NCBI RefSeq assembly: GCF_053078305.1
Contig: NZ_CP166879.1
DNA length: 64,000 nt
Direction: 5' to 3' (one strand)
This document shows positions 7,807-49,963 of this stretch, piece after piece. The translations under genes were made by a program, and so were the position numbers. How positions within the stretch are numbered: the stretch's first letter is position 1; each line of letters starts with the position of its first letter. The notes under the pieces were generated by a model. It saw only the letters and a list, made by a program, of their open reading frames with translations. It had not been told where the DNA came from and searched no databases.

Positions 7807-8274
7807 CCTGGCTTTTTAGCTACCAATACACTGATTTAGCTTAATTTTTAAAACCCTCTCAACATACAGTCGTTGATGAGAAAGGGTTATTGCGGAAATT
7901 AACTTCCGAATATAAGGTGACATTATGGTAATTGAATATTGGCTCTCCAATAATGCAGGAGGAAGTGTTACAGCTAACGGAATAGCAGGCAAGGTAACAA
8001 TTCGGCAATTGGCTATTTTTAAGAATTATATTAAGTGTCATTCAATATGGTTTTTAGGAGTTTCTTTAGGTTGACAATATTTAATATTGCGTCTCCACAT
8101 GCGATATTTCTTAAATAATGTTTTATTATTACCACTTTTAATTCAGGGATAATGTGAGGTTATTACCCTCAAATAATATGAGATAAATAGTGCTGCAACA
8201 TTGCATTTTTGCCCCGATTTATCCATGATCGAATTGTGACATTTGTCATACAACGAATAGGTTTTGTACTTACT

Positions 8275-8898
8275 ATGGAATGGATTGCCGATCCGTCTAT
8301 CTGGGCCGGGTTAATCACGCTGATTGTGATCGAACTGGTCCTCGGCATTGATAATCTGGTCTTTATTGCCATCCTCGCCGAAAAACTACCGCCGAAGCAG
8401 CGCGACCGCGCACGGGTTACCGGGCTGTTGCTGGCGATGTTAATGCGCCTGTTACTGCTGGCGTCAATCTCCTGGCTGGTCACCCTGACTCAACCGCTGT
8501 TCAGCTTCCGCTCGTTTACCTTTAGCGCCCGCGACTTAATCATGCTGTTTGGTGGTTTCTTCTTGTTGTTCAAAGCCACGATGGAGCTGAACGAACGGCT
8601 GGAAGGGAAAGACAGCAATAACCCCACGCAACGCAAAGGTGCGAAGTTCTGGGGGGTGGTGACACAAATTGTGGTACTGGACGCCATCTTCTCACTCGAC
8701 TCGGTGATTACAGCCGTCGGGATGGTCGACCATTTACTGGTCATGATGGCCGCCGTGGTTATCGCTATCAGCCTGATGTTGATGGCCAGCAAGCCGTTAA
8801 CGCAATTTGTTAACAGTCACCCGACCATCGTTATTCTCTGCTTAAGCTTCCTGTTGATGATTGGCTTTAGCCTGGTGGCAGAAGGTTTCGGCTTCGTG
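8275..8898 (+). pseudogene. yegH: yegH (TerC-family membrane protein) 5' fragment, interrupted by prophage left end
   Basis: ORF begins [18 protein letters not shown]... and carries only ~208 codons of a ~527-aa protein before reading into phage end and a stop at 8899-8901. Confidence 0.8.
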
Positions 8899-9075
8899 TA
8901 ACCAGGTGAATCATTTGATACCAACGAGGGTTTTAGTGAAAGGAGGTGAAATCACCTGTAAGATACTGAAATAAAACAGGTGATACCAATGCGAGCGCGG
9001 AAAGTCTATTTGATACCGATTGTGCAATAATTAGTCGTTTATTCTAAAATCGGCAACACTTTTGATACTACGGAT
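8897..9075 (+). repeat. prophage left end (attL-like) with transposase-binding-site repeats
   Basis: TTTGATACC at 8914 and 9009, TTTGATACT at 9061, GTGATACCA at 8979; spacing (about 17, 112, 164 bp from terminus) resembles Mu L1/L2/L3; terminus begins TGTA. Confidence 0.6.
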
Positions 9076-18390: not shown

Positions 18391-18580
18391 TCTACCCGCT
18401 GGATGGGCGCGGCCACTAATGGCCAGGAAGCATCATTTTTTTAAAACAGGCGAAAATATCAGTATATGTGGACGGTGGTTATATCTGGCTCATAATCGCG
18501 AGCCGGATACATTTGAAAGCCCTGATGACTGTGCCGAATGCCGCAGAAGAGTGAATAAGGAGAAAGATAATGGACAATAG
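18383..18580 (+). CDS. small Cys-containing protein
   Basis: 65-aa ORF overlapping neighbours; CxxC near C-terminus (DDCAECRRR). Confidence 0.3.
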   Translation: MNSLPAGWARPLMARKHHFFKTGENISICGRWLYLAHNREPDTFESPDDCAECRRRVNKEKDNGQ

Positions 18581-18866
18581 TTCTCTGTTGTTCTGGTGCT
18601 TATATATCACATCCTTTTTCGGCGCATTTGTTATTACCCGGTGGTTATGTCGAAAAATCATCTGCTTTTTTGATAAAAGACATCCGGTTGAACGGGCGGC
18701 TGATGCGCTCATTCAGCAGGCCATTGTGTTATATAGCGGTGAATTTTTCTGCCGGATAACAACCAGAGATGGCTGGCACATAATGATTATTCCGCCAACA
18801 CACCATGCCCGGTGGGATGAGGCAGAAAAGGCTTTCCATGTCCGTAAAAAGGTAAATACGGTATGA
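18570..18866 (+). CDS. small protein with N-terminal transmembrane segment
   Basis: 98 aa; hydrophobic N-terminus LLFWCLYITSFFGAFVITRWL. Confidence 0.35.
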   Translation: MDNSSLLFWCLYITSFFGAFVITRWLCRKIICFFDKRHPVERAADALIQQAIVLYSGEFFCRITTRDGWHIMIIPPTHHARWDEAEKAFHVRKKVNTV

Positions 18867-19372
18867 GAGGAAAACTGATATCCGCCATTCATGTGGCAAA
18901 GCGCGAGCTTGCCCTGGATGATGAGACCTACACATTCGTACTACTGGCAGCCACCGGCAAAACCAGTTGCCGGGATATGTCACCCGGTGAGTTATCCCGC
19001 GTGCTGGATGTTTTCAAAAAACGCGGTTTTAAAGTGCGTCAGAAACCGGTTAACCGGGCCTTAAAACCGGGTACGGTGACCGCCAGAATTCGCGCCATCT
19101 GGAAAGTGATGCACCGGCAGGGCTTTATCTCTGATGGTGCGGAAACCGCTCTTAACCGCTGGGTGAAATCGCAGACGGCCGCGCAGAACGGCGGCGAAGG
19201 TGTGGCAAACTGGCAGTGGCTGGAGCAACACCCCGCCCTGGCCTCAGATGTGCTGGAGCGTCTCAAGCGATGGCACCGCCGCAAAATGCTGGCCGCGATG
19301 GGAATGCCCGAACGCACGCTGATGGGGTATGACGCCGTTTGCAGGCAGTATGAAAAATCACTTCCCCGTTAA
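18863..19372 (+). CDS. gemA: GemA-like regulatory protein (Mu gp16 family)
   Basis: 169 aa; last gene before terminator at the end of the early operon; N-terminal region resembles Mu GemA as recalled. Confidence 0.6.
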   Translation: MRGKLISAIHVAKRELALDDETYTFVLLAATGKTSCRDMSPGELSRVLDVFKKRGFKVRQKPVNRALKPGTVTARIRAIWKVMHRQGFISDGAETALNRWVKSQTAAQNGGEGVANWQWLEQHPALASDVLERLKRWHRRKMLAAMGMPERTLMGYDAVCRQYEKSLPR

Positions 19373-19378
19373 CCCCAA

Positions 19379-19407
19379 ATCCCGCCACAACGCGGGATTT
19401 TTATTTT
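19379..19407 (+). terminator. rho-independent terminator at end of early operon
   Basis: hairpin ATCCCGC-CACAAC-GCGGGAT followed by TTTTTATTTT immediately after gemA stop. Confidence 0.7.
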
Positions 19408-19441
19408 AAACTTACCGGGAACGCGAGAACCGGAGGCTGAT

Positions 19442-19867
19442 ATGGCAGAAACTCAGATGAGCATGTTTGGTGGTGACAGTGAGCAACTGCACGCCCTTAT
19501 CGACCGCCTTGATGACATCCCTGATGATGTTCTCAAAAAGAACTGGCCGCGGACCCTGTCAGAACTGGTTGAAGTCACCGGCGCAGAACTTCAGCGTCAG
19601 GGGATTGAGCCGGTACTGGCCGGTAAACTGGCACGCAAGGTGGCTGCGGCTCAGGCAGCCTATATGGGCGGACGGGGTTATTACCTGCCGGTCGGGGAAT
19701 CTCTCTTTGCCGAGCTGCGAAACAATGAGATATTTTCGCGCTGGGACCGGGGCGAGAAGATTGAATCCCTTCGCCGCCATTACCGGATGTCAGAAACCCA
19801 GATTTATACCGTCATACGTGAACAGCGCCGTCTGCATCTGGCAAGAACGCAACCGCCACTTTTCTGA
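19442..19867 (+). CDS. Mor/C-family transcriptional activator (late-gene activator)
   Basis: 141 aa; follows terminator and precedes lysis genes as Mu C; C-terminal HTH (RMSETQIYTVIREQRR). Confidence 0.7.
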   Translation: MAETQMSMFGGDSEQLHALIDRLDDIPDDVLKKNWPRTLSELVEVTGAELQRQGIEPVLAGKLARKVAAAQAAYMGGRGYYLPVGESLFAELRNNEIFSRWDRGEKIESLRRHYRMSETQIYTVIREQRRLHLARTQPPLF

Positions 19868-19938
19868 TATTCCGCAAAGCCTGCCGCCTCTCCTTCACCG
19901 TTACGCTGACTCAGAGAACATCATGAGACAGCGTAACA

Positions 19939-20439
19939 ATGCCAAAACTCCCCGCACCACTGCGTAAAAAGCTGATTGCCCTTGTTCTGGCCGGTGCCGG
20001 GACGTTCACGATTGCCACGCATTACACCGGTTACTGGGAAGGGAAAGAAAACTCCACGTATATCGATCCCACCGGTACACCCACCATCTGTTACGGCCAT
20101 ACCGGCCCGGATGTGAAACCGGGTATGACCCTGACAGATGAAGAATGCCTGGAACTACTGGAAAAGGACATGAAATGGGCCTTTGCGGCCATTGATCGGC
20201 GTGTTCAGGTGCCGCTTACCCGTGGTCAGACGGTGGCGCTGGCTTCGTGGATCTTCTGGGCCGGTGAAACGAACTTTCGCAACTCCACGCTTCTGCGCCT
20301 GATCAATGCCGGGCAGATGCCCGCGTCCTGTAAGCAGTATATCCGCTGGATTTATTCAAAGGGGGTGAAACTTCCCGGCCTTGAGGCCCGCCGTTCGGCG
20401 GATGAATGGTTATGTCGCTACGACTTGCCGAAAGTCTGA
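19939..20439 (+). CDS. endolysin (T4-lysozyme-like muramidase) with probable N-terminal SAR signal-anchor
   Basis: 166 aa; weakly hydrophobic Gly/Ala-rich N-terminus LIALVLAGAGTFTIA then catalytic region; position as Mu lys. Confidence 0.75.
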   Translation: MPKLPAPLRKKLIALVLAGAGTFTIATHYTGYWEGKENSTYIDPTGTPTICYGHTGPDVKPGMTLTDEECLELLEKDMKWAFAAIDRRVQVPLTRGQTVALASWIFWAGETNFRNSTLLRLINAGQMPASCKQYIRWIYSKGVKLPGLEARRSADEWLCRYDLPKV

Positions 20440-20902
20440 ACCGCTTCTGGCGACCGCTCATGATAGCGCTGCTGTGTGCGGTACTGCTGTTACGGGGTGT
20501 CCTGTGGCTGCGGTGAATAACGCCTTACCGGCCCTGATTGCCGGGGCGTGCATGGCGGCGCTGGGGACTATCGCTGTACTGGTTGCCGCGATATGGGGAA
20601 TGCACCAGAAGACGCAGCGCCTTGAAGACAATAATCAGGTGCTTGTGCGTGAGCGGGATGAGGCGCGTCAGGTGCTGGCAAATCAGCAGCACACCCTGCA
20701 ACTCATTTCACAAATCAGTGAGGCGGCCACGAATGAAAAGCAACAGAACATTCAGCACAGCGAGGAGCAGCAGAGCGTTGTCCGCCGGTCGCTGGCAGCA
20801 GTGCCTGCGGCCTCTGTCCCTGTTCCTGATGATGTGGCTGACCGGGTGCGCCGGGCCGTCTGTGAAATACGTGCCTGTGAAGCCGGTGCCGATCCCCGCT
20901 GA
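20402..20902 (+). CDS. i-spanin (Rz-like); start codon ambiguous (ATG 20402 or GTG 20513)
   Basis: TM segment ALPALIAGACMAALGTIAVLVAAIW followed by Q/E-rich coiled-coil; overlaps endolysin end. Confidence 0.55.
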   Translation: MNGYVATTCRKSEPLLATAHDSAAVCGTAVTGCPVAAVNNALPALIAGACMAALGTIAVLVAAIWGMHQKTQRLEDNNQVLVRERDEARQVLANQQHTLQLISQISEAATNEKQQNIQHSEEQQSVVRRSLAAVPAASVPVPDDVADRVRRAVCEIRACEAGADPR

Positions 20903-21104
20903 ATGGCTGGCTGACTGCCTGGTCCCTCCTGCGCCGGAGCCGTTCACGTTTGGGGCATCGGTCACTTACAACCTGCAACTGCTGGCGGTGATCAAGAACT
21001 GCAACGTGGATAAGGCCAGTATTCGTCGTCTGGAGGCGCGGCGACAACATGAATTTACTGATATGGCCGGAACGCCTGCTGTTCCGGCAGGAAAGACGAA
21101 GTAA
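20733..21104 (+). CDS. o-spanin (Rz1-like outer-membrane lipoprotein), out-of-frame overlap with i-spanin
   Basis: lipobox LTGC after hydrophobic stretch; Pro-rich mature region VKYVPVKPVPIPAEW...VPPAPEP; starts inside i-spanin in another frame. Confidence 0.5.
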   Translation: MKSNRTFSTARSSRALSAGRWQQCLRPLSLFLMMWLTGCAGPSVKYVPVKPVPIPAEWLADCLVPPAPEPFTFGASVTYNLQLLAVIKNCNVDKASIRRLEARRQHEFTDMAGTPAVPAGKTK

Positions 21105-21114
21105 GGAAAAAGGT

Positions 21115-21342
21115 ATGGATGATTCAGATCGTGCTCAGGCTGTGATGGAGCGGGGATCAGAACGCGCCCTTTGTAACCGGCTGACACGTAAGCGCCGGGC
21201 AGTGGATGCTCCGGGCAGACGTGTCTGCGCGGACTGTGGCGGAGAGATCCCCGCCGCACGTCTTGTTGCTGTGCCGGATGCCATCCGTTGTGTGAACTGC
21301 CAGAACATCATGGAGGCCCGTCATGTGGGTCAGCATCGTTAA
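21115..21342 (+). CDS. TraR/DksA-family C4 zinc-finger protein
   Basis: ~75 aa from Met MDDSDRAQ; CxxC...CxxC (CADCGGEI...CVNCQN). Confidence 0.6.
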   Translation: MDDSDRAQAVMERGSERALCNRLTRKRRAVDAPGRRVCADCGGEIPAARLVAVPDAIRCVNCQNIMEARHVGQHR

Positions 21343-21631
21343 AGATTATGTTGTGCCGATCCTTTCGGCGACGGCAACCGCTGGCGGGATATTCATGGCG
21401 CTGATGCGCAAAACGTTTGTCCCCCGCGAGGCCTTTGAAAAACTCTCCGACCGCGTTGAGAAGGTGGAAACCCGTCTGTCGTCACTGCCGACAGAAGCCG
21501 AGGTCAACCGTCTGAATGTGGAAATCGTGACCCTGCGGGGTGAACTGAAAACCACGAACGCCACGCTCCGCTCTGTCTCCTATCAGAACGAACTGCTGCT
21601 GGAGCAGGCTGTAAGGAAAAAAACGCAATGA
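21323..21631 (+). CDS. small membrane protein with coiled-coil (possible lysis accessory / releasin-like)
   Basis: 102 aa; N-terminal TM VVPILSATATAGGIFMAL then heptad-rich region; function is inference. Confidence 0.4.
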   Translation: MWVSIVKDYVVPILSATATAGGIFMALMRKTFVPREAFEKLSDRVEKVETRLSSLPTEAEVNRLNVEIVTLRGELKTTNATLRSVSYQNELLLEQAVRKKTQ

Positions 21632-21918
21632 GTGATTTCATTACTGAAGATCAGCGTCTGGTCATTCTGCGGTCGCTGGCAGATTACAACGGTGAACTGG
21701 GTGAATCCGTGCTCCAGGACTGTCTGGATGATTACGGCCACCGCGTGTCCCGCGACACCGTTCACACCCACATTGCCTGGCTTGCCGAGCAGGGACTGGT
21801 GCGCAAACGTGTTCTGATTAACGGTTATTTCATCGCAGAGCTGACCGGCCGGGGGCAGGATGTGGCGGAAGGCCGCGCCAGTGTTCCGGGTGTGAAGAAA
21901 CCACGCGCAAGGGGGTAA
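21628..21918 (+). CDS. Mu gp26-like small protein
   Basis: 96-aa ORF immediately upstream of small terminase. Confidence 0.4.
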   Translation: MSDFITEDQRLVILRSLADYNGELGESVLQDCLDDYGHRVSRDTVHTHIAWLAEQGLVRKRVLINGYFIAELTGRGQDVAEGRASVPGVKKPRARG

Positions 21919-21920
21919 CG

Positions 21921-22502
21921 ATGGACAAGCCGACGCGTGGTCGTGTACGCAAGGTGGATTTGCTCCCCGACAGTATCCGTAAGCCGCTGCTGGAAATGCT
22001 GCGTGAAAAACGTCTGACGCAGGTCCAGATCCGCGAGGAAATCAACCGTCTGATCCGTGAGGCGGGCCTGCCGGAAGAGCAGCAGCTTTCACCGGCGGCC
22101 ATCAGCCGGGAAGCCTCCCGTAATGAGCTGATTGCCCGTAACCTGCGTGATTTACGCGAGCAGACAAAAGCCATGATGGCCGAACTGGGGGACAAGCCGA
22201 CCGGTGAAACCACTGCACTGATTCTGGAGATGTCCCGCGCCCTGATGTACCGCCGTCTGCGTGCCGCCACCGAATCCCTGAACAGCGACAGCGACGTGGA
22301 TATGCGTCTTATTAAGGACATCCTCCTGTCAGCACAGCGTGCGGAAAGTGCCGCCGAGCGCAGCATTAAGCGTGAAAAAGAAATCCGGGCTGCATTTGCT
22401 GAAGAGATGGCAAACGCCGTCACCGACGAGCTGCGCGGCGTGGACGGGATGAGTGAACAGCTTGAGTCCCGTATTAAGGGGATTCTGTTGGGTAAAGCCT
22501 GA
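21921..22502 (+). CDS. terminase small subunit-like protein (Mu gp27 family)
   Basis: 193 aa; directly precedes and overlaps large terminase start. Confidence 0.65.
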   Translation: MDKPTRGRVRKVDLLPDSIRKPLLEMLREKRLTQVQIREEINRLIREAGLPEEQQLSPAAISREASRNELIARNLRDLREQTKAMMAELGDKPTGETTALILEMSRALMYRRLRAATESLNSDSDVDMRLIKDILLSAQRAESAAERSIKREKEIRAAFAEEMANAVTDELRGVDGMSEQLESRIKGILLGKA

Positions 22503-24166
22503 TGAATAACGCCGAAGAACGCTCACCCTTACTGACGAATACCGTCTCCACCCGCAAAATTGATCTGGCCGGTGAAAAAGCCCTGCTGGGCGTGGATGTG
22601 CCGGACAGCCTTGATTTGCCCGGTGATATGCCGGTGTTTCTGGATTATCAGGCCCGCTGGTTTGAGGATGAAAGCGAGGTCTGCATCGCGGAAAAATCCC
22701 GCCGCACCGGGCTTACCTGGGCGGAAGCCGGGCGTAACGTCATTACCGCTGCAAAACCGAAGCGGCGTGGTGGCCGCAATGTGTTTTATGTGGGGTCAAA
22801 GCAGGAGATGGCGCTGGAATATATTTCTGCCTGTGCATTGTTCTCCCGTGCCTTTAACCAGCTGGCCGATGCTGATGTGTATGAGCAGACCTTCTGGGAT
22901 CGGGATAAAAAAGAAGAAATTCTGACCTACATGATCCGCTTTCCGAACAGTGGATTCAAAATTCAGGCGCTGTCTTCCCGTCCGTCAAACCTGCGCGGCC
23001 TTCAGGGGGATGTGGTGATTGATGAAGCCGCGTTCCACGAGTCGCTGGATGAACTTCTCAAGGCGGCAATGGCGCTTACCATGTGGGGCGCGCGCGTGCG
23101 TATTATCTCCACGCATAACGGCGTCGATAATCTGTTTAATCAGTACATTCAGGAAGCCCGCGAGGGGCGCAAGGATTACAGCGTCCACCGCATTACCCTG
23201 GATGATGCCATTACGGACGGGTTGTACCGTCGTATCTGTTATGTCACCGGCCGCGAATGGTCACCGGAAAGCGAGCAGAAGTGGCGTGATGATCTCTACA
23301 AAAACGCCCCGACCCGTGAGGATGCCGACGAGGAATACGGCTGTATCCCGAAAAAATCCGGCGGTGCCTATATTCCTCACGCACTTATTGAAATGGCGAT
23401 GATCCGCGACATCCCGATTCTGACGTTTGAAGCCCCGGACGACTTCATCAGCCGTGCCGCATGGCTGCGTGAATCGGAAGTTTTAACCTGGTGTGAAGAA
23501 CATTTAAAACCGCTTTTAGAGGCGTTAAATCCCCGTTCCCGCTTCAGCTTCGGGGAAGACTTTGCCCGCACCGGTGACCTGTCCTGCTTTGTGCTGCTGG
23601 AAATCACTGAATCCCTGGCAAAACGCGAGGTGTTTCGCGTGGAGCTGCGCAACCTGCCGTATGCCCAGCAGGAGCAGGTGATGATGTACATCCTGACCCG
23701 CGTTCCGGCGCTGGTCGGTGCGGCGTTCGACGCCACCGGTAACGGCGGCTATCTGGCCGAAGCCGCGCTGCTGGCCTTTGGCCCGGACATCATCGACTGC
23801 GTGATGTTATCGCCGAAGTGGTACGGCGAGTGGATGCCAAAACTGAAGGCCGAGTTTGAAGATCAGAATATCCTCGTCGCCCGCCATCAGACCACGCTTG
23901 ATGATTTGCGCCATGTGAAGATGGTGAACGGTATCCCGCAAATCGACAAGGGGCGCACGAAGGACCAGAACGCAACGGCTGTGAACGCCCGCCGCCATGG
24001 CGATTTTGCCGTGGCGCTCTGTATGGCAAACCGGGCGTCATACATGGAGGGCTTCATCCTGGATGAATCAGCCTGTCAGGCGCTGCCGGAGCGGTCGCGG
24101 GCAATGGAGGGCGGTTATCGTGATGACGATGAGGCATATCATGAATTTGATCGGGGGTGCTGGTAG
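22502..24166 (+). CDS. terminase large subunit
   Basis: 554 aa; ATPase and nuclease regions; position before portal. Confidence 0.85.
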   Translation: MNNAEERSPLLTNTVSTRKIDLAGEKALLGVDVPDSLDLPGDMPVFLDYQARWFEDESEVCIAEKSRRTGLTWAEAGRNVITAAKPKRRGGRNVFYVGSKQEMALEYISACALFSRAFNQLADADVYEQTFWDRDKKEEILTYMIRFPNSGFKIQALSSRPSNLRGLQGDVVIDEAAFHESLDELLKAAMALTMWGARVRIISTHNGVDNLFNQYIQEAREGRKDYSVHRITLDDAITDGLYRRICYVTGREWSPESEQKWRDDLYKNAPTREDADEEYGCIPKKSGGAYIPHALIEMAMIRDIPILTFEAPDDFISRAAWLRESEVLTWCEEHLKPLLEALNPRSRFSFGEDFARTGDLSCFVLLEITESLAKREVFRVELRNLPYAQQEQVMMYILTRVPALVGAAFDATGNGGYLAEAALLAFGPDIIDCVMLSPKWYGEWMPKLKAEFEDQNILVARHQTTLDDLRHVKMVNGIPQIDKGRTKDQNATAVNARRHGDFAVALCMANRASYMEGFILDESACQALPERSRAMEGGYRDDDEAYHEFDRGCW

Positions 24167-43177: not shown

Positions 43178-43738
43178 ATGCTGATTGGCTATATACGCGT
43201 ATCAACAAATGACCAGAACACCGGTTTACAAAGAAATGCGCTGGAATGTGCAGGATGTGAGCAGATTTTTGAAGACAAAATGAGTGGTAAAACGACACAG
43301 CGGCCGGGACTGAAGCGGGCACTGAAGAAACTAAAACCCGGTGACACACTGATGGTCTGGAAACTGGACAGGCTGGGGCGCAGTATGCGCCACCTTGTTG
43401 CGCTGACAGATGAATTACAGCAACAGGGGATAAATTTTCGTAGTCTTACTGACAACATTGATACGTCAACCCCCATGGGGCGCTTCTTTTTTCACATAAT
43501 GGGTGCGCTGGCAGAAATGGAGCGTGAATTAATTGTCGAACGGACACGGGCTGGTCTTGCAGCTGCCCGTGAAAGGGGACGAACCGGCGGCAGACCCCGT
43601 CGTCTCACGCAGGAACAATACGAGCAGGTCGGGCGTTTACTGGCCGGGGGTGTCAGTCGAAGACAGGTGGCACTTATTTTTGATATCGGCCTTTCAACCC
43701 TTTATCGTTATTATCCTGCGAGCGTTTCGGAAAAATAA
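43178..43738 (+). CDS. gin: Gin/Hin/Pin-family serine DNA invertase
   Basis: 186 aa; catalytic-Ser N-terminus MLIGYIRVSTNDQN; C-terminal HTH; adjacent to invertible segment. Confidence 0.9.
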   Translation: MLIGYIRVSTNDQNTGLQRNALECAGCEQIFEDKMSGKTTQRPGLKRALKKLKPGDTLMVWKLDRLGRSMRHLVALTDELQQQGINFRSLTDNIDTSTPMGRFFFHIMGALAEMERELIVERTRAGLAAARERGRTGGRPRRLTQEQYEQVGRLLAGGVSRRQVALIFDIGLSTLYRYYPASVSEK

Positions 43739-43828: not shown

Positions 43829-45886
43829 ATGAATATTATGACGTCCAAATGGGTTCAACTATCATCAATGCCCGGAAACTTTACCGTTAAAGTTTCCGGT
43901 GGTACAGCGGCATTTCTTGAGGCTCCCTTTCCTCCTGCTGAAACGAAAGGAGGAATGACATTTGCTGACTGTCTCATCAGTTTTAATACACAGGATTGCC
44001 TGTGGGTAAGGCCAGTATCCGGTGATCCGAACGTGGAAATTACCGGAGCGGGTATTGGTGCTGTCATTCCGTTAAGTGCTGATGTTGCCGGTACTACTGA
44101 ACCGTCAGACTGGGATAATGCAGAAACACATACCCGTCCGGCAGGAAATGAAACGGCTTCCAGCTCCCCTTCCTGGTATTACGTGATTGTTATAGCCGGC
44201 CAGTCCAATGCTTCATCTTATGGTGAAGGGTTGCCCCTTCCGGATTCTTATGATCGTCCTGATCCACGTATTATGCAGCTGGCACGCAGGAATACACAAA
44301 CCCCCGGAGGTATTCCCTGCAAATACAATGAAATCATTCCAGCAGATCACTGCCTTCATGATGTTCAGAATATGAGTCTGCTGAACCATCCAAAAGCAGA
44401 CCTGAAAAAAGGGCAGTATGGTTGTGTGGGGCAGGGACTTCATATTGCGAAAAAAGTATTACCGGTGATTCCTGCTGATGCCGGGATTTTACTGGTTCCC
44501 TGTGCCCGTGGCGGCTCTGCTTTTACAACCGGCGCAGTTGGCTCATTCGATCCGGCAAGTGGTGCAGCCGAGGCGTCACTACGCTGGGGAGTGGATACCC
44601 CACTGTATCAGGATCTTGTCAGTCGAACTAAAGCGGCACTTGAGGCGAATCCAAAGAATGTGCTGTTATCTGTCGTATGGATTCAGGGGGAAGGAGACCT
44701 TAAAGCGACCCCGGCCCAGCATGGTGCCCAGTTTACTGCGATGGTGAAAAAATTCCGTGCGGATCTTGGGGCTTTCTCCGGTCAGTGTATTGGTGGTTCA
44801 TCAGACAGTGTGCCGTGGTTATGTGGTGACACAACCTATGACTGGAAAGAGAAGAACCCGGCGGCATATGAAACCATTTATAGCGGATATAAAAACCGGG
44901 CTTCCGAGAACATTCACTTTGTTCCACTGATGCACGATGAGTTCGGTAATAAAACCGCGACCAACCTGCCGGAGCACGACCCGGATATCGCTTCTGCCGG
45001 GTATTATGGTGCGGAATCACGGGGAGATGGCAACTGGACAACAGCATCCAGGGCAACCCATTTTAGCTCCTGGGCGCGCCGTTTTCTGGTCTCAGATCGT
45101 TTTGCATCAGCAATTCTTAAATATGCAGGTCTGACCTCTGCATTTATTGCCGGTGTGGCCCCTGATGGTGAAACCCTGCCTCAGCCCGCGCCGGGTGGGA
45201 AACCGGAAGCGCCGACAGGTAGTCAGCCAGGAGGCAGTGAGTCCCCCCATCCGACATCCCCGTCACTCCGTACGCTGCTTTCACTTAAAGCATCAGCAGG
45301 AGAAGCCCCGGCTCAGGGCTGGAAAATTACAGATGGTACAATCCAGCTGACGGACGAAGGTAAAGCGTTGACCGTATCCAAACAAAGCGGAAAAACCTGG
45401 ACGCTTACCCATGGAACTGATGCAGCCGGTGAACTTCTGAAGCATGGTGGTCAGTTGACCTGTAAATTCCGTCTGTCAGGTGAAGTAAAAGAAGGCCAGT
45501 TTGCTCTGGGTATTTACCTCCACACCGATACGGTCCCGGAAGGTGTAACCATGAGTGGTACAGGCACACCGTTCCTGATGGCGTATTATCTCCAGACAAC
45601 AGGCGGCCAGTTAAATCTGATGCACCATAAAACAGGGGGGAATACGAAACTGGGATCATTTGGAGCCTACAATAACCAGTGGCATACACTTGTCCTGAAG
45701 TTTACGGCGGGAAGTGCCCAGGTAACGCCTGTGCTGGATGGCACTCCGGGCCAGGCATTCCAGATGGTGAAAGATGCACTTTCCCCTGCCAAAGATACGC
45801 TGACACTGACAGATGTCACCAAAGGGGCAACTTATGGCGTGTCTTTTGAGAGCGTTGTCCTTGAGGTTAATACCCCTGCGGCATAA
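43829..45886 (+). CDS. cargo protein with central SGNH / sialate-O-acetylesterase-like domain and C-terminal beta-sandwich domain
   Basis: 685 aa; GQSNASSYGE motif after a hydrophobic strand, typical of SASA/DUF303 esterases; Pro/Gly-rich linker PQPAPGGKPEAPTGSQPGGSESP; Mu has no gene here. Confidence 0.6.
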   Translation: MNIMTSKWVQLSSMPGNFTVKVSGGTAAFLEAPFPPAETKGGMTFADCLISFNTQDCLWVRPVSGDPNVEITGAGIGAVIPLSADVAGTTEPSDWDNAETHTRPAGNETASSSPSWYYVIVIAGQSNASSYGEGLPLPDSYDRPDPRIMQLARRNTQTPGGIPCKYNEIIPADHCLHDVQNMSLLNHPKADLKKGQYGCVGQGLHIAKKVLPVIPADAGILLVPCARGGSAFTTGAVGSFDPASGAAEASLRWGVDTPLYQDLVSRTKAALEANPKNVLLSVVWIQGEGDLKATPAQHGAQFTAMVKKFRADLGAFSGQCIGGSSDSVPWLCGDTTYDWKEKNPAAYETIYSGYKNRASENIHFVPLMHDEFGNKTATNLPEHDPDIASAGYYGAESRGDGNWTTASRATHFSSWARRFLVSDRFASAILKYAGLTSAFIAGVAPDGETLPQPAPGGKPEAPTGSQPGGSESPHPTSPSLRTLLSLKASAGEAPAQGWKITDGTIQLTDEGKALTVSKQSGKTWTLTHGTDAAGELLKHGGQLTCKFRLSGEVKEGQFALGIYLHTDTVPEGVTMSGTGTPFLMAYYLQTTGGQLNLMHHKTGGNTKLGSFGAYNNQWHTLVLKFTAGSAQVTPVLDGTPGQAFQMVKDALSPAKDTLTLTDVTKGATYGVSFESVVLEVNTPAA

Positions 45887-45943: not shown

Positions 45944-46123
45944 ATGACATATATAAACGTCTGCCTGCTGTATTTCTGCACGGTGGTTTGTTGTCTGTTG
46001 CTTGTCAGCGGTGGTTATAAAATTATTCGCAATTATTTTCGAAATAAAATTGATGCAGCTGCCGAGGAAAAGATAAAAAGCGGTGCTGTAATGCCGCAGC
46101 CGAAAGACTCCGGTCAGATTTAA
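45944..46123 (+). CDS. small membrane protein (59 aa)
   Basis: ATG with GAGG Shine-Dalgarno 6 nt upstream; hydrophobic Cys-rich N-terminus CLLYFCTVVCCLLLVSGG; below the 60-aa ORF-track cutoff. Confidence 0.4.
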   Translation: MTYINVCLLYFCTVVCCLLLVSGGYKIIRNYFRNKIDAAAEEKIKSGAVMPQPKDSGQI

Positions 46124-46757: not shown

Positions 46758-47019
46758 ATGTAGTATCCTGTTGATTTGAAACATACTACATATACGCGCG
46801 ATCCTACCTTCACTGTATAAAAAGTCAATAAAATGATCATTTTATGATCGTTTTCACCACCTAACTCTTCGTTTCTTTAAGTAAATAATCACCGCCCTGA
46901 ATCATTGTTGATGACTTTTAAATCTATTTGTTGTATCAATTAAACAAATCGAATCGATCGTTTTTGTCGATCGATTGCATGAGAAAGGCATCAACAACAA
47001 AGCAGGAGGTTATGCGGCC
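46758..47019 (+). promoter_or_regulatory. com-mom control region with dyad symmetries and Dam GATC cluster
   Basis: ATGTAGTAT-N16-ATACTACAT dyad (46758-46791); palindrome AAATGATCATTT (46831-46842); GATC at 46800, 46835, 46846, 46956, 46969; two TCGATCG motifs 13 bp apart ~50-65 bp upstream of com. Confidence 0.5.
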
Positions 47020-47220
47020 ATGTATCGAAACATACGGTGCCGACACTGCAATAAGCTACTGGCACGGGCCAGTTTCAGTTATCTGGAAGTAAAATGTCCG
47101 CGCTGTAAAACCCTCAATCAAATCACATCTCCGAGCGCCACAGAGCACCCCACATACACAAGGAAATCCTGTCGTGGGGAACAGAAAGCAAGTCACATCC
47201 CGTATCATCAGCACGCCTGA
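47020..47220 (+). CDS. com: Com zinc-finger translational activator of mom
   Basis: 67 aa; [10 protein letters not shown]...[12 protein letters not shown] parallels Mu Com as recalled; AGGAGG Shine-Dalgarno upstream; overlaps mom start. Confidence 0.8.
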
Positions 47221-47911
47221 ACTTATTCGCTATAACGACAATATCGTTGGTTATGGCTCCCGTGAGTTGCGGGTTGAGACAATAAGTTGCTGGCTGGCCA
47301 GACTGGTTATCGTCAATAAACATTACAGCCACCGTTTCGTAAATAATTCCTACCTTCATCTGGGTATATTTTCAGAACGGGAACTTGTTGGCGTAATGCA
47401 ATGGGGTTACGCCCTTAACCCAAACAGTGGTGCACGCGTCGTAACGGGTACGCAGAACCGAGAATATATGGAGCTTAACCGGCTATGGATGCATGACTGT
47501 ATGCCGAGAAACTCCGAATCAAGGGCAATCAGTTACGCGCTCAAGCTAATCAGGCAGCTTTATCCGCAGGTACAGTGGGTTCAGTCGTTTGCAGATGAGC
47601 GTTGTGGCTGTCTTGGTGTCGTGTATCAGGCAAGCAATTTTGATTATGTAGGCAGCCATGAATCAACATTCTATGAACTTGATGGCGAGTGGTATCACGA
47701 GATTTGCAGGAGTGCCATTAAACGAGGCGGACAACGAGGTGAACATCTGAGGGCTAATATCGACAGAGCCAGTGTGCATAAGTTCCGACAGTTTCGTTAC
47801 ATCCGGTTTCTGAACAAGAGGGCCAGAAAACGCCTCAACACAAAGCTATTCAAAGTCCAGCCTTACCCAAAACCACAAACAGTTAAAACTGGTTTGAAAG
47901 AGAGTGAATGA
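47174..47911 (+). CDS. mom: Mom DNA-modification enzyme (adenine N6 modification, anti-restriction)
   Basis: 245 aa; last prophage gene, overlapped by com as in Mu; family assignment from position and com linkage. Confidence 0.7.
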
Positions 47912-48177: not shown

Positions 48178-48973
48178 ACCTAATATCCTTATATCCAGAA
48201 GTGGAGAGGTGCAAGATAAATCAAAACACCATAATTACTGTTTGCAGAATAATTCCTTTCTGCCGGTCCGAAATGTGATCGTGGAGTCAATTCTGACGAT
48301 GATCTGAAATAAGAATAACGTCTGAACGAGTATAAGAAAATGCTTAAATCATCAAGTTTATATATTTTTACATTTCATTGATGAAATCAATGTAACTGCA
48401 ATGAATTTTAATGATAGTGATTTTTGTATCTTGTTGATATTAATCGATGAATTTGAATTCATGATGAAGTGATGATTTTATAAAACGTTTTTTCATTTTT
48501 GCGAGATGGCTCTCATTATACGTGTTCTGTTAATTAATGAGCACAGTGATAATTAATGGCGAAATGAATGACGCGCATTTTCCACATCTTTGAGTTGTGG
48601 TTATTACACCATTTCAAAAACTCAACGCCAGGTAATGCGGCCTATTGACTGGTTAAAAAGAAGACATCCCGCATGGGTACCAAAGACAACAAGGATTTCC
48701 AGGCTAATCTTATGGATTAATCTGCTGTGCATTCGACAATTTGTCTGACAAATTGGCTTTCCCTTATGTCTTTTCCCGCTAAATTTATGCACGTTCTCAC
48801 TGTAATTCTGCGATGTGATATTGCTCTCCTATGGAGAATTAATTTCTCGCTAAAACTATGTCAACACAGTCACTTATCTTTTAGTTAAAAGGTAATGCTT
48901 TGTTTTCCGATTAATTTAACGAATGTCATTCGTTTTTGCCCTACACAAAACGACACTAAAGCTGGAGAGAACC

Positions 48974-49963
48974 ATGCACAAATTTACTAAAGCCCTGGCA
49001 GCCATTGGTCTGGCAGCCGTTATGTCACAATCCGCTATGGCGGAGAACCTGAAGCTCGGTTTCCTGGTGAAGCAACCGGAAGAGCCGTGGTTCCAGACCG
49101 AATGGAAGTTTGCCGATAAAGCTGGGAAGGATTTAGGGTTTGAAGTTATTAAGATTGCCGTGCCGGATGGCGAAAAAACATTGAACGCTATCGACAGCCT
49201 GGCTGCCAGTGGCGCGAAAGGTTTCGTTATTTGTACTCCGGACCCGAAACTCGGCTCTGCCATCGTGGCGAAAGCGCGTGGCTACGATATGAAAGTCATT
49301 GCCGTGGATGACCAGTTTGTTAACGCCAAAGGTAAGCCAATGGATACCGTTCCTCTGGTGATGATGGCGGCGACTAAAATTGGCGAACGTCAGGGCCAGG
49401 AACTGTATAAAGAGATGCAGAAACGTGGCTGGGATGTCAAAGAAAGCGCGGTGATGGCGATTACCTCCAACGAACTGGATACGGCTCGTCGCCGTACTAC
49501 GGGTTCTATGGATGCGCTGAAAGCTGCAGGATTCCCGGAAAAACAAATTTATCAGGTACCTACCAAATCTAACGACATCCCCGGGGCATTTGACGCTGCC
49601 AACTCAATGCTGGTTCAACATCCGGAAGTTAAACATTGGCTGATCGTCGGTATGAACGACAGCACCGTGCTGGGCGGCGTACGCGCGACGGAAGGTCAGG
49701 GCTTTAAAGCGGCCGATATCATCGGTATCGGTATTAACGGTGTGGATGCGGTGAGCGAACTGTCTAAGGCACAGGCAACCGGCTTCTACGGTTCCCTGTT
49801 GCCAAGCCCGGACGTACATGGTTATAAGTCCAGCGAAATGCTTTACAACTGGGTAGCAAAAGGTGTTGAACCGACCAAATTCACCGAAGTTACCGACGTG
49901 GTGCTGATCACGCGTGACAACTTTAAAGAAGAACTGGAGAAAAAAGGTTTAGGCGGTAAGTAA
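48974..49963 (+). CDS. araF: L-arabinose ABC transporter periplasmic binding protein
   Basis: 329 aa from MHKFTKALAAIGLAAVMSQSAMA signal peptide; followed by araG and araH. Confidence 0.9.
   Translation: MHKFTKALAAIGLAAVMSQSAMAENLKLGFLVKQPEEPWFQTEWKFADKAGKDLGFEVIKIAVPDGEKTLNAIDSLAASGAKGFVICTPDPKLGSAIVAKARGYDMKVIAVDDQFVNAKGKPMDTVPLVMMAATKIGERQGQELYKEMQKRGWDVKESAVMAITSNELDTARRRTTGSMDALKAAGFPEKQIYQVPTKSNDIPGAFDAANSMLVQHPEVKHWLIVGMNDSTVLGGVRATEGQGFKAADIIGIGINGVDAVSELSKAQATGFYGSLLPSPDVHGYKSSEMLYNWVAKGVEPTKFTEVTDVVLITRDNFKEELEKKGLGGK

Follow-up and report, generated by a model that had tools for sequence, protein, structure and literature searches.

Introduction

Bacteriophage Mu lyses its host without a holin, as has been shown experimentally (Chamblee et al., 2022, mBio, PMC9239132). 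Its endolysin gp22 belongs to the signal-anchor-release (SAR) endolysins, and gp25 is required for gp22 release; an adjacent basic pair just before the SAR segment (K6, K7) creates this releasin dependence, and a conserved RR/RK junction has been described for gp25 (PMC9239132). In the Mu record (AF083977), the genes run in the order C (gp21), gp22, gp23, the outer-membrane spanin (o-spanin) gene, gp24, the releasin gene gp25, gp26, gp27 and gp28 (large terminase, TerL). Here we analyze a 64,000-nucleotide stretch of contig NZ_CP166879.1 (assembly GCF_053078305.1; the whole stretch is called the window below), which carries at positions 19939-21631 a lysis cassette that an initial annotation had described as holin-less. 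We consider it about 80% probable, judging from the sequence, that this cassette is a Mu-type holin-less lysis system consisting of a SAR endolysin, a releasin and spanins.

Results

Components of the lysis cassette

When we compared the window genes with Mu genes by pairwise BLASTP, we found that they pair with the Mu genes at the same positions and are collinear with gp21-gp28. The initial annotation had held that the Mu-type releasin logic occurs here in a different gene arrangement; the order is instead exactly that of Mu gp21-gp28 (AF083977), while the releasin logic itself is borne out by the two proteins most concerned, the endolysin (39% identical to gp22) and the DUF2730 protein (35% identical to gp25). 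The cassette contains the following features:

19939-20439, + strand: predicted SAR-type endolysin (muramidase), homolog of Mu gp22; PF00959 Phage_lysozyme 6.3e-37, phrog_7 endolysin 7.6e-51
19963-20019, + strand: codons of the predicted SAR segment and its predicted basic "lock", R9-K10-K11 followed by L12-T27 (LIALVLAGAGTFTIAT)
20406-20516, + strand: small open reading frame (ORF) of 36 codons (from ATG 20406) or 34 codons (from ATG 20412), predicted single-pass membrane peptide
20504-20902, + strand: inner-membrane spanin (i-spanin, Rz-like) of 132 amino acids (aa), homolog of Mu gp23; phrog_214 Rz-like spanin 1.4e-32, no Pfam match
20733-21104, + strand: o-spanin (Rz1/LysC-like outer-membrane lipoprotein); Pfam PF23793 LysC 3e-17, phrog_3001 Rz-like spanin 7.8e-42
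21115-21342, + strand: TraR/DksA-family C4 zinc-finger protein in the slot of Mu gp24; PF01258 zf-dskA_traR 4.4e-12, PHROGs DksA-like zinc finger
21323-21631, + strand: DUF2730 protein of 102 aa, homolog of the Mu releasin gp25; PF10805 7.1e-20, phrog_736 (function unknown) 8.6e-32

The identity between the endolysin and Mu gp22 extends over 165 aa (E 1e-32), and the catalytic triad is present as E34-X8-D43-X5-T49, with E34, D43 and T49 invariant in alignment A4. The N-terminus (MPKLPAPLRKKLIALVLAGAGTFTIAT) had been described as Gly/Ala-rich and weakly hydrophobic, and this description holds: Gly, Ala or Thr occupy 9 of the 16 residues from L12 to T27, the mean Kyte-Doolittle (KD) hydropathy is ~2.0 over these 16 aa, and the segment fell below the threshold of our transmembrane (TM) scan (1.5 over 19 aa). 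Across five lineages (53-100% identity), R9 and K10 never vary, and position 11 holds either K or R. On reading the sequence we found no lipobox or obvious signal-peptidase site in the endolysin, and no Cys before residue 51. The protein thus combines the lysozyme triad with a weakly hydrophobic Gly/Ala/Thr-rich segment placed after basic residues, which are the sequence features of a SAR endolysin. By analogy with Mu, it should be Sec-exported, membrane-tethered and releasin-dependent.

The initial annotation had also pointed to a TM protein after the TraR-like gene, which proved to be the 102-aa DUF2730 protein with its N-terminal TM segment. This protein scores 71.4 bits against PF10805 (cut-off 24.9), with residues 6-97 aligned to profile positions 3-101 of 102, and its identity to Mu gp25 extends over 91 aa (E 4.5e-17). 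Significant similarity to gp25 itself is confined to type I DUF2730 proteins, which places the product of 21323-21631 in type I. The TM segment of this protein spans residues 10-28 and is followed by the R29-K30 junction and a helical cytoplasmic domain of 74 aa, and the first 9 residues are without net charge; by the positive-inside rule, an N-out/C-in topology is predicted. Its gene is the fourth after lys (the fifth if the small ORF is counted) and so lies within five genes of the endolysin gene.

The spanins overlap out of frame, as had been noted: the i-spanin gene runs to 20902, and the o-spanin gene (20733-21104) begins within it in another frame and extends beyond its end, which is the overlapped architecture. 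The i-spanin, which is 28% identical to Mu gp23 (E 3e-7), carries a TM segment (LPALIAGACMAALGTIAVLVAAIW) at its N-terminus, and its periplasmic domain is helical. The o-spanin is 42% identical to Mu gp23.1 (E 3e-15) and has the lipobox L-T-G-C with Ala at +2 (Cys39, codon 20847-20849); its "MK.N" start is kept in the Citrobacter locus L004. With a TM-anchored i-spanin and an out-of-frame lipoprotein o-spanin, the pair has every feature of a two-component overlapped spanin. For the i-spanin start, GTG 20504 is the best choice: diverged relatives (83%, 55% and other clades) have ATG at this codon, and a conserved CGGGG lies 6 nt upstream. We rejected an upstream start, either ATG 20402 or the GTG 20474 chosen by the NCBI Prokaryotic Genome Annotation Pipeline (PGAP): the ratio of nonsynonymous to synonymous changes (pN/pS) in that frame is 1.94, the ATG of diverged clades aligns with 20504, and a start of the ATG 20402 type is excluded in locus L035 by an in-frame stop.

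In the PGAP copies that we inspected (given here in window coordinates, as annotated in NZ_CP129252, locus L002), the i-spanin is placed at 20474-20902 with start GTG 20474 and is called "endopeptidase" or "hypothetical protein". The PGAP lysC gene is placed at 20862-21104; its start, GTG 20862, lies downstream of the lipobox Cys codon, and the annotated LysC therefore has neither signal peptide nor lipidation site. The RefSeq models of the cassette miss the small ORF and truncate the o-spanin.

The zinc-finger protein scores 78.3 bits against TIGR02419 (cut-off 59.7) and carries its four Cys as CADC...CVNC, which places it in that family. Its match to Mu gp24 is weak and lies across the CxxC motifs (E 0.04).

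Search for a holin

To look for a holin, we scanned the hydropathy of every prophage ORF (~9.1-48.0 kb) with 28 aa or more and searched the TM-bearing ones against Pfam, PHROGs and NCBIfam. In agreement with the initial annotation, which had found no classical multi-TM holin, the scan detected no multi-TM holin-like ORF in any gene slot of the prophage, and none of the TM-bearing prophage ORFs matched a holin family in the three databases. In gene slots, a TM segment was seen in 18570-18866, the small ORF, the i-spanin, the DUF2730 protein and a DUF1378 moron protein (45944-46123). In Mu, the TM proteins encoded outside the late genes, gp19 and gp20, have no holin action (PMC9239132).

A distant Mu-like locus that carries the block TraR-DUF2730-gp26-gp27 (L080:2181-3299) encodes a 191-aa endolysin followed, just before TraR, by a 91-aa ORF with two hydrophobic segments. 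The endolysin of this locus looks soluble and appears to differ from the gp22 type. DUF2730 thus also occurs beside a holin-type cassette, as Chamblee et al. noted. The two-TM holin-like ORF is evident in L080, so our scan would have seen a holin in the window if one were present. These results support a holin-less reading of this prophage, as far as sequence can; the small ORF might conceivably be a new kind of holin-like peptide.

Comparison with Mu and other lysis systems

From C through the large terminase, the window follows the gene order of Mu, with homologs that are 28-63% identical and only a weak match in the gp24 slot. In both, the endolysin has a SAR-type N-terminus with basic residues, the spanins are overlapped and include an LTGC lipobox, the DUF2730 protein combines a basic junction with a TM segment at its N-terminus, and a holin is absent. 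There are also differences. The basic motif of the endolysin is R-K-K in the window and K-K in Mu, and the SAR segment has 2 Gly residues in the window and 6 in Mu. In the window, the occupant of the gp24 slot is a bona fide member of the TraR family, whereas Mu gp24 falls below the Pfam TraR model. Unlike Mu, the window has one Mor/C activator and is without the gp18-gp20 middle genes, and its releasin homolog has a net basic cytoplasmic domain. Finally, the window has an extra ORF of 34-36 codons between lys and the i-spanin gene. This small ORF is the only real departure from the Mu arrangement, and the cassette itself is unsurprising for a Mu-like prophage.

We collected 81 Mu-like loci through gp26, and among them the commonest architecture is C, lys, (small ORF), Rz, Rz1, TraR, DUF2730, gp26, gp27. 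A TraR-type gene lies directly upstream of DUF2730 in 59 of the 81 loci, so the window shows the usual state and it is Mu gp24 that is unusual.

The S21/R21 system of phage 21 and Lyz of P1 have endolysins of the same lysozyme family with the same kind of Gly/Ala-rich N-terminal anchor, and by tblastn, endolysins ~40-47% identical to that of the window are found in many phages, several of them annotated "SAR endolysin". Phages that combine a pinholin with a SAR endolysin have a two-TM depolarizing pinholin, whereas the window is without such a gene. The o-spanin matches the LysC family (PF23793) of P2 lysB/lysC, and the spanin genes overlap out of frame in P2, Mu and the window. In contrast, the holin Y, the soluble endolysin K and the multi-TM LysA of P2 have no counterpart that we could find in the window cassette.

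A small ORF between the endolysin and i-spanin genes

The initial annotation had listed extra small membrane ORFs, among them a 33-aa ORF at 20416-20517. A small ORF is indeed present between lys and the i-spanin gene and is extra relative to Mu; the coordinates given for it fall in the endolysin frame and run through the endolysin stop, and the actual ORF is 20406-20516. The other candidate, 21323-21631, is not an extra gene; it is the releasin homolog in the releasin slot. ATG 20412 is the better conserved start of the small ORF (MVMSLRLAESLNRFWRPLMIALLCAVLLLRGVLWLR) and is kept in nearly all relatives. The ORF shares 34 nt with the 3' end of the endolysin gene (28 nt if counted from ATG 20412) and 13 nt with the 5' end of the i-spanin gene; it is probably translationally coupled to its neighbors and would encode a small inner-membrane peptide.

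We found the small ORF intact and at the same position in 27 of the 28 distinct junction sequences of the clade, in locus L108, and in all 14 distinct full-length metagenomic copies. Its carriers are E. coli variants, a prophage of Citrobacter braakii with its relatives (endolysin 82-84%) and three further lineages (67%, 55% and 49%). Over these five lineages (endolysin 49-100%), the ORF keeps a length of 36-37 codons and a hydrophobic core with a mean KD of 2.0-2.9 despite heavy nucleotide divergence. The exception among the 28 junctions is the frameshifted L006. In this IMG/VR copy (L006:2312-2890), the endolysin continues into the small-ORF frame through a frameshift close to its stop (…ADEWLCRYDLPKSLNRFWRPLMIALL…); the fusion is either natural or the product of a sequencing error. 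Mu proper and the L038/L039/L059 lineage have no such ORF, and in them the i-spanin start directly overlaps the endolysin stop.

Searches for further relatives returned few, and none from outside this prophage group. The small ORF has no family match in Pfam, PHROGs or NCBIfam; tblastn against phages gave only two Shiga toxin (Stx) phage records that carry the same Mu-like insert; and a profile search of 1.84 billion cluster representatives gave one true relative, of 34 aa. Looking for more lineages, a scan of genome contigs gave one locus, Citrobacter braakii, a DNA-pattern scan of metagenomes gave only E. coli-clade copies, and a second scan of viral contigs returned mostly the same contigs and added L108 and L109. 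PGAP leaves the small ORF unannotated in the two RefSeq copies that we inspected, and in Shigella sonnei gene callers occasionally list it as an "uncharacterised protein".

To ask whether the peptide is under selection, we computed pN/pS on the 20 codons that overlap no other gene. The small-ORF frame gives 0.50, as compared to 1.94 for the frame of the i-spanin and 1.05 for that of the endolysin; the minimum numbers of changes at the three codon positions are 17/12/27 (chi-square p = 0.044), and 4.5% of permutations of the alignment columns match the pN/pS ratio (p = 0.045). It is reasonably likely, on this evidence, that the small ORF is a translated gene under selection. Two points weigh against its status as a gene: the statistical support is modest (p about 0.04-0.05), and the invariant C-terminal L-R-G partly coincides with the i-spanin Shine-Dalgarno sequence (CGGGG).

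The main alternative is that the ORF is a translational-coupling relay across the 65-nt spacer between endolysin stop and i-spanin start, or a chance ORF, and that its peptide is without function. In Mu and L038/L039, the i-spanin start overlaps the endolysin stop, and here the small ORF re-establishes an overlap with each neighbor; the conserved endolysin C-terminus fixes its first 11 codons, its conserved C-terminal L-R-G codons form the i-spanin Shine-Dalgarno sequence, and the other alternative frame is likewise open across the spacer. A relay, however, predicts no amino-acid constraint, whereas pN/pS is 0.50 in this frame and at least 1 in the others, the changes concentrate at third positions, and the hydrophobic core survives many nucleotide changes. 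We regard a functionless peptide as a serious contender that nonetheless falls short of an even chance.

A functional inner-membrane lysis factor, which might be a mini-holin or viroporin-like depolarizer or a stabilizer or destabilizer of the tethered endolysin or the releasin, is possible and would fit the frame-specific purifying selection as well as the position, length and hydrophobic core that are kept in five lineages. The ORF lies inside the cassette and overlaps both neighbors, so it would be co-translated with endolysin and spanin, and its conservation is unexplained by RNA structure. With such a factor, this lineage would have a three-component inner-membrane step and would not be a plain copy of Mu. 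Against such a factor, Mu and the L038/L039/L059 lineage manage without the ORF, the p value is only ~0.045, one short TM segment is not the topology of a class I or II holin or of a pinholin, and no family match and only one relative among the 1.84 billion cluster representatives were found. We therefore hold a functional lysis factor to be on the unlikely side. A role of the peptide in lysis in any form is likewise unlikely, at best a little under one in three; within that, the likeliest role is that of an accessory modulator of lysis timing, and because Mu is without the small ORF, the ORF is dispensable for the basic mechanism.

Three other accounts were considered, and the first two were rejected. 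To see whether the small ORF duplicates the i-spanin N-terminus, we aligned the two locally and compared the scores with those of shuffled sequences; this gave p = 0.26 for the peptide and p = 0.33 for the DNA, and the peptide compared with Mu gp23 gave p = 0.03, which is unconvincing after multiple tests. A conserved RNA structure in the spacer between lys and the i-spanin gene received no support from RNAalifold (-7.5 kcal/mol, covariation -0.66, single-sequence z -1.6). For a programmed frameshift from the small ORF into the i-spanin gene, we saw, by eye, no slippery heptamer in 20412-20516.

Among known peptides of this kind, Hok/TisB-type type I toxins are very small membrane peptides that the small ORF resembles only in its size (~35 aa) and its single hydrophobic segment. 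The likeness to Mu gp20 goes no further: gp20 has 39 aa and a single TM segment, its gene lies near the lysis genes, and it is the product of a middle gene upstream of C. The small ORF has no sequence similarity to Mu gp19/gp20 or to Hok/TisB-type toxins, and no antisense RNA or toxin-antitoxin context. Mu gp20 has no lysis phenotype (PMC9239132).

Flanking genes and the prophage

The genes on either side of the cassette belong to a tight run on the same strand, from 19442 through the gp26-like, gp27-like and large terminase genes (ORF listing and raw sequence), and a further TM protein is encoded upstream:

18570-18866, early region, directly upstream of gemA: 98-aa protein with a strong N-terminal TM segment (SLLFWCLYITSFFGAFVIT)
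19442-19867, + strand: Mor/C-family late transcription activator; Pfam Mor 2.8e-32, phrog_532 "late transcriptional activator" 3.1e-45
19868-19938, + strand: intergenic region of 71 nt between activator and endolysin genes, at the position of the Plys feature in the Mu record
21628-21918, + strand: gp26-like winged-helix protein, 63% identical to Mu gp26
21921-22502, + strand: gp27-like small terminase, 57% identical to Mu gp27; Pfam Phage_Mu_Gp27 2.1e-33, PHROGs small terminase
22502-24166, + strand: large terminase (TerL), labeled from gene order (Mu gp28 slot) and the annotation of the Mu record

The activator is 40% identical to Mu C (gp21) as compared to 27% to Mu Mor, and it lies between gemA and lys, directly upstream of the lysis cassette, like Mu C. 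By tblastn with Mu Mor and Mu C as queries, the Mor/C family has a single copy in the whole window. Homologs of the Mu middle genes gp18-gp20 are absent from 18863-19938, and a terminator-like hairpin with a T-run is present at 19377-19400, just 3' of gemA. Taken together, the single activator, the lack of gp18-gp20 and the hairpin suggest a two-tier transcription cascade as compared to the three-tier cascade of Mu. The 71-nt region 19868-19938 is, by analogy, the presumed activator-dependent late promoter, equivalent to Mu Plys; no sigma-70 consensus promoter was found in it, as expected of an activator-dependent promoter. The 98-aa protein of 18570-18866 matches phrog_17269 (function unknown) and has no Pfam match.

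In the window, the Mu-like prophage extends from ~9.1 kb (repressor/transposase side) to ~48.0 kb (com/mom side), and its transposase region, GemA, Mor/C and Mom mark it as a transposable phage. The prophage is of a kind frequent in Shiga-toxin E. coli. Among 5,426 complete E. coli genomes, 230 (~4%), including many O157:H7 strains, carry the cassette with 80-99% identity. Judging from these O157 matches, the lineage is probably Sp18 of O157 Sakai, and the window from 19.4 to 21.6 kb is probably the start of the late operon of a Mu-like, Sp18-type prophage. Sp18 has been reported as apparently intact, and Sp18-type DNA is packaged into particles in O157 Sakai (PMC2669165), which is consistent with a working late operon.

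A 3.2-kb region is 99% identical to a segment labeled "inserted Bacteriophage Mu-like phage" in two Stx-phage records (LC727895 and LC727881), where the insert sits inside an Stx phage. On the left flank of the prophage we found a host gene for a TerC-family membrane protein (8209-8901, Pfam 2.6e-50), and on the right flank the ORF 48923-49963, by our own reading, resembles the arabinose-binding protein AraF. With host genes on both flanks, the prophage is chromosomal here and not within an Stx phage as in LC727895/LC727881. The right end contains, in order, a Gin-like invertase (43178-43738), a 685-aa DUF6645 protein (43829-45886), the 59-aa DUF1378 protein (45944-46123), a DUF826-type ORF, and com and mom (46975-47911). 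The DUF6645 protein resembles, again by our own reading, the NanS-p sialate O-acetylesterase of Stx phages. DUF1378 genes usually adjoin the lysis genes of lambdoid Stx phages; the DUF1378 gene in the window lies in an accessory cluster and not among lysis genes.

Discussion

We found that the cassette resembles that of Mu in homology, gene order, the sequence features of its components and the absence of a recognizable holin. From the analogy with Mu we infer membrane tethering, releasin dependence and timing, and propose that lysis would proceed as follows. The C-type activator would switch on the late promoter, and Sec would export the endolysin, which its SAR segment would keep tethered and inactive in the inner membrane, with the cytoplasmic R9-K10-K11 locking it in place. 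The DUF2730 protein, membrane-tethered and N-out/C-in, would act as the releasin that frees the SAR segment from the bilayer; the released endolysin would then refold and degrade peptidoglycan, and the overlapped pair of i-spanin and o-spanin would finally disrupt the outer membrane.

Several observations weigh against this proposal. The SAR status of the endolysin is predicted from composition and homology. The cytoplasmic domain of the DUF2730 protein is net basic (11 acidic and 14 basic residues) as compared to Mu (12 acidic and 11 basic), a difference that also weighs mildly against the "acidic micro-environment" model of gp25, if function is conserved. Among the 81 Mu-like loci, no single endolysin type is tied to DUF2730 as tightly as TraR, gp26 and gp27 are, and DUF2730 is also found in phages with non-SAR, cytoplasmic endolysins (PMC9239132); the ancestral role of DUF2730 may be something other than endolysin release.

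These points bear most on the idea that the DUF2730 protein is not needed for lysis, that the endolysin releases spontaneously or through an unrecognized factor, and that DUF2730 serves a late function linked to TraR, gp26 and terminase. The TraR-DUF2730-gp26-gp27 block persists even in Mu-like loci with an unrelated or more distant endolysin gene, and in 24 loci it occurs without a detected gp22-type endolysin, which would fit this idea, as would the phages with cytoplasmic endolysins (PMC9239132) and the net charge that differs from gp25. The protein here, however, has type I similarity to an experimentally proven releasin (E 4e-17) and its partner, a gp22-type SAR endolysin, retains the adjacent basic residues that make the Mu enzyme dependent on its releasin, and we consider a DUF2730 protein without a part in lysis improbable. 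A cryptic holin that the endolysin needs is less probable still: the 98-aa protein of 18570-18866 and the 59-aa DUF1378 protein of 45944-46123 are of no known function (phrog_17269; PF07125 DUF1378) and each carry a single strong TM segment, but both lie outside the late cassette, in the early region upstream of gemA and in the right-end accessory cluster, neither matches a holin family, and Mu gp19/gp20 are not holins (PMC9239132).

The releasin mechanism of Mu was described recently, and models of its mode of action still compete. The window provides a diverged natural endolysin-releasin pair (35-39% identity) in which the basic lock is kept and the charge of the releasin differs, and which is therefore useful for testing competing models. 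The sole new element is the small ORF which, if functional, adds a component to a pathway that is thought to have two inner-membrane players. It is a speculative but specific idea, to which we would give about one chance in four, that its peptide is an unrecognized third inner-membrane component of releasin-type lysis that sets timing through the tethered endolysin, the releasin or the membrane potential. If this is true, a "holin-less" phage lineage would have a timing device of its own.

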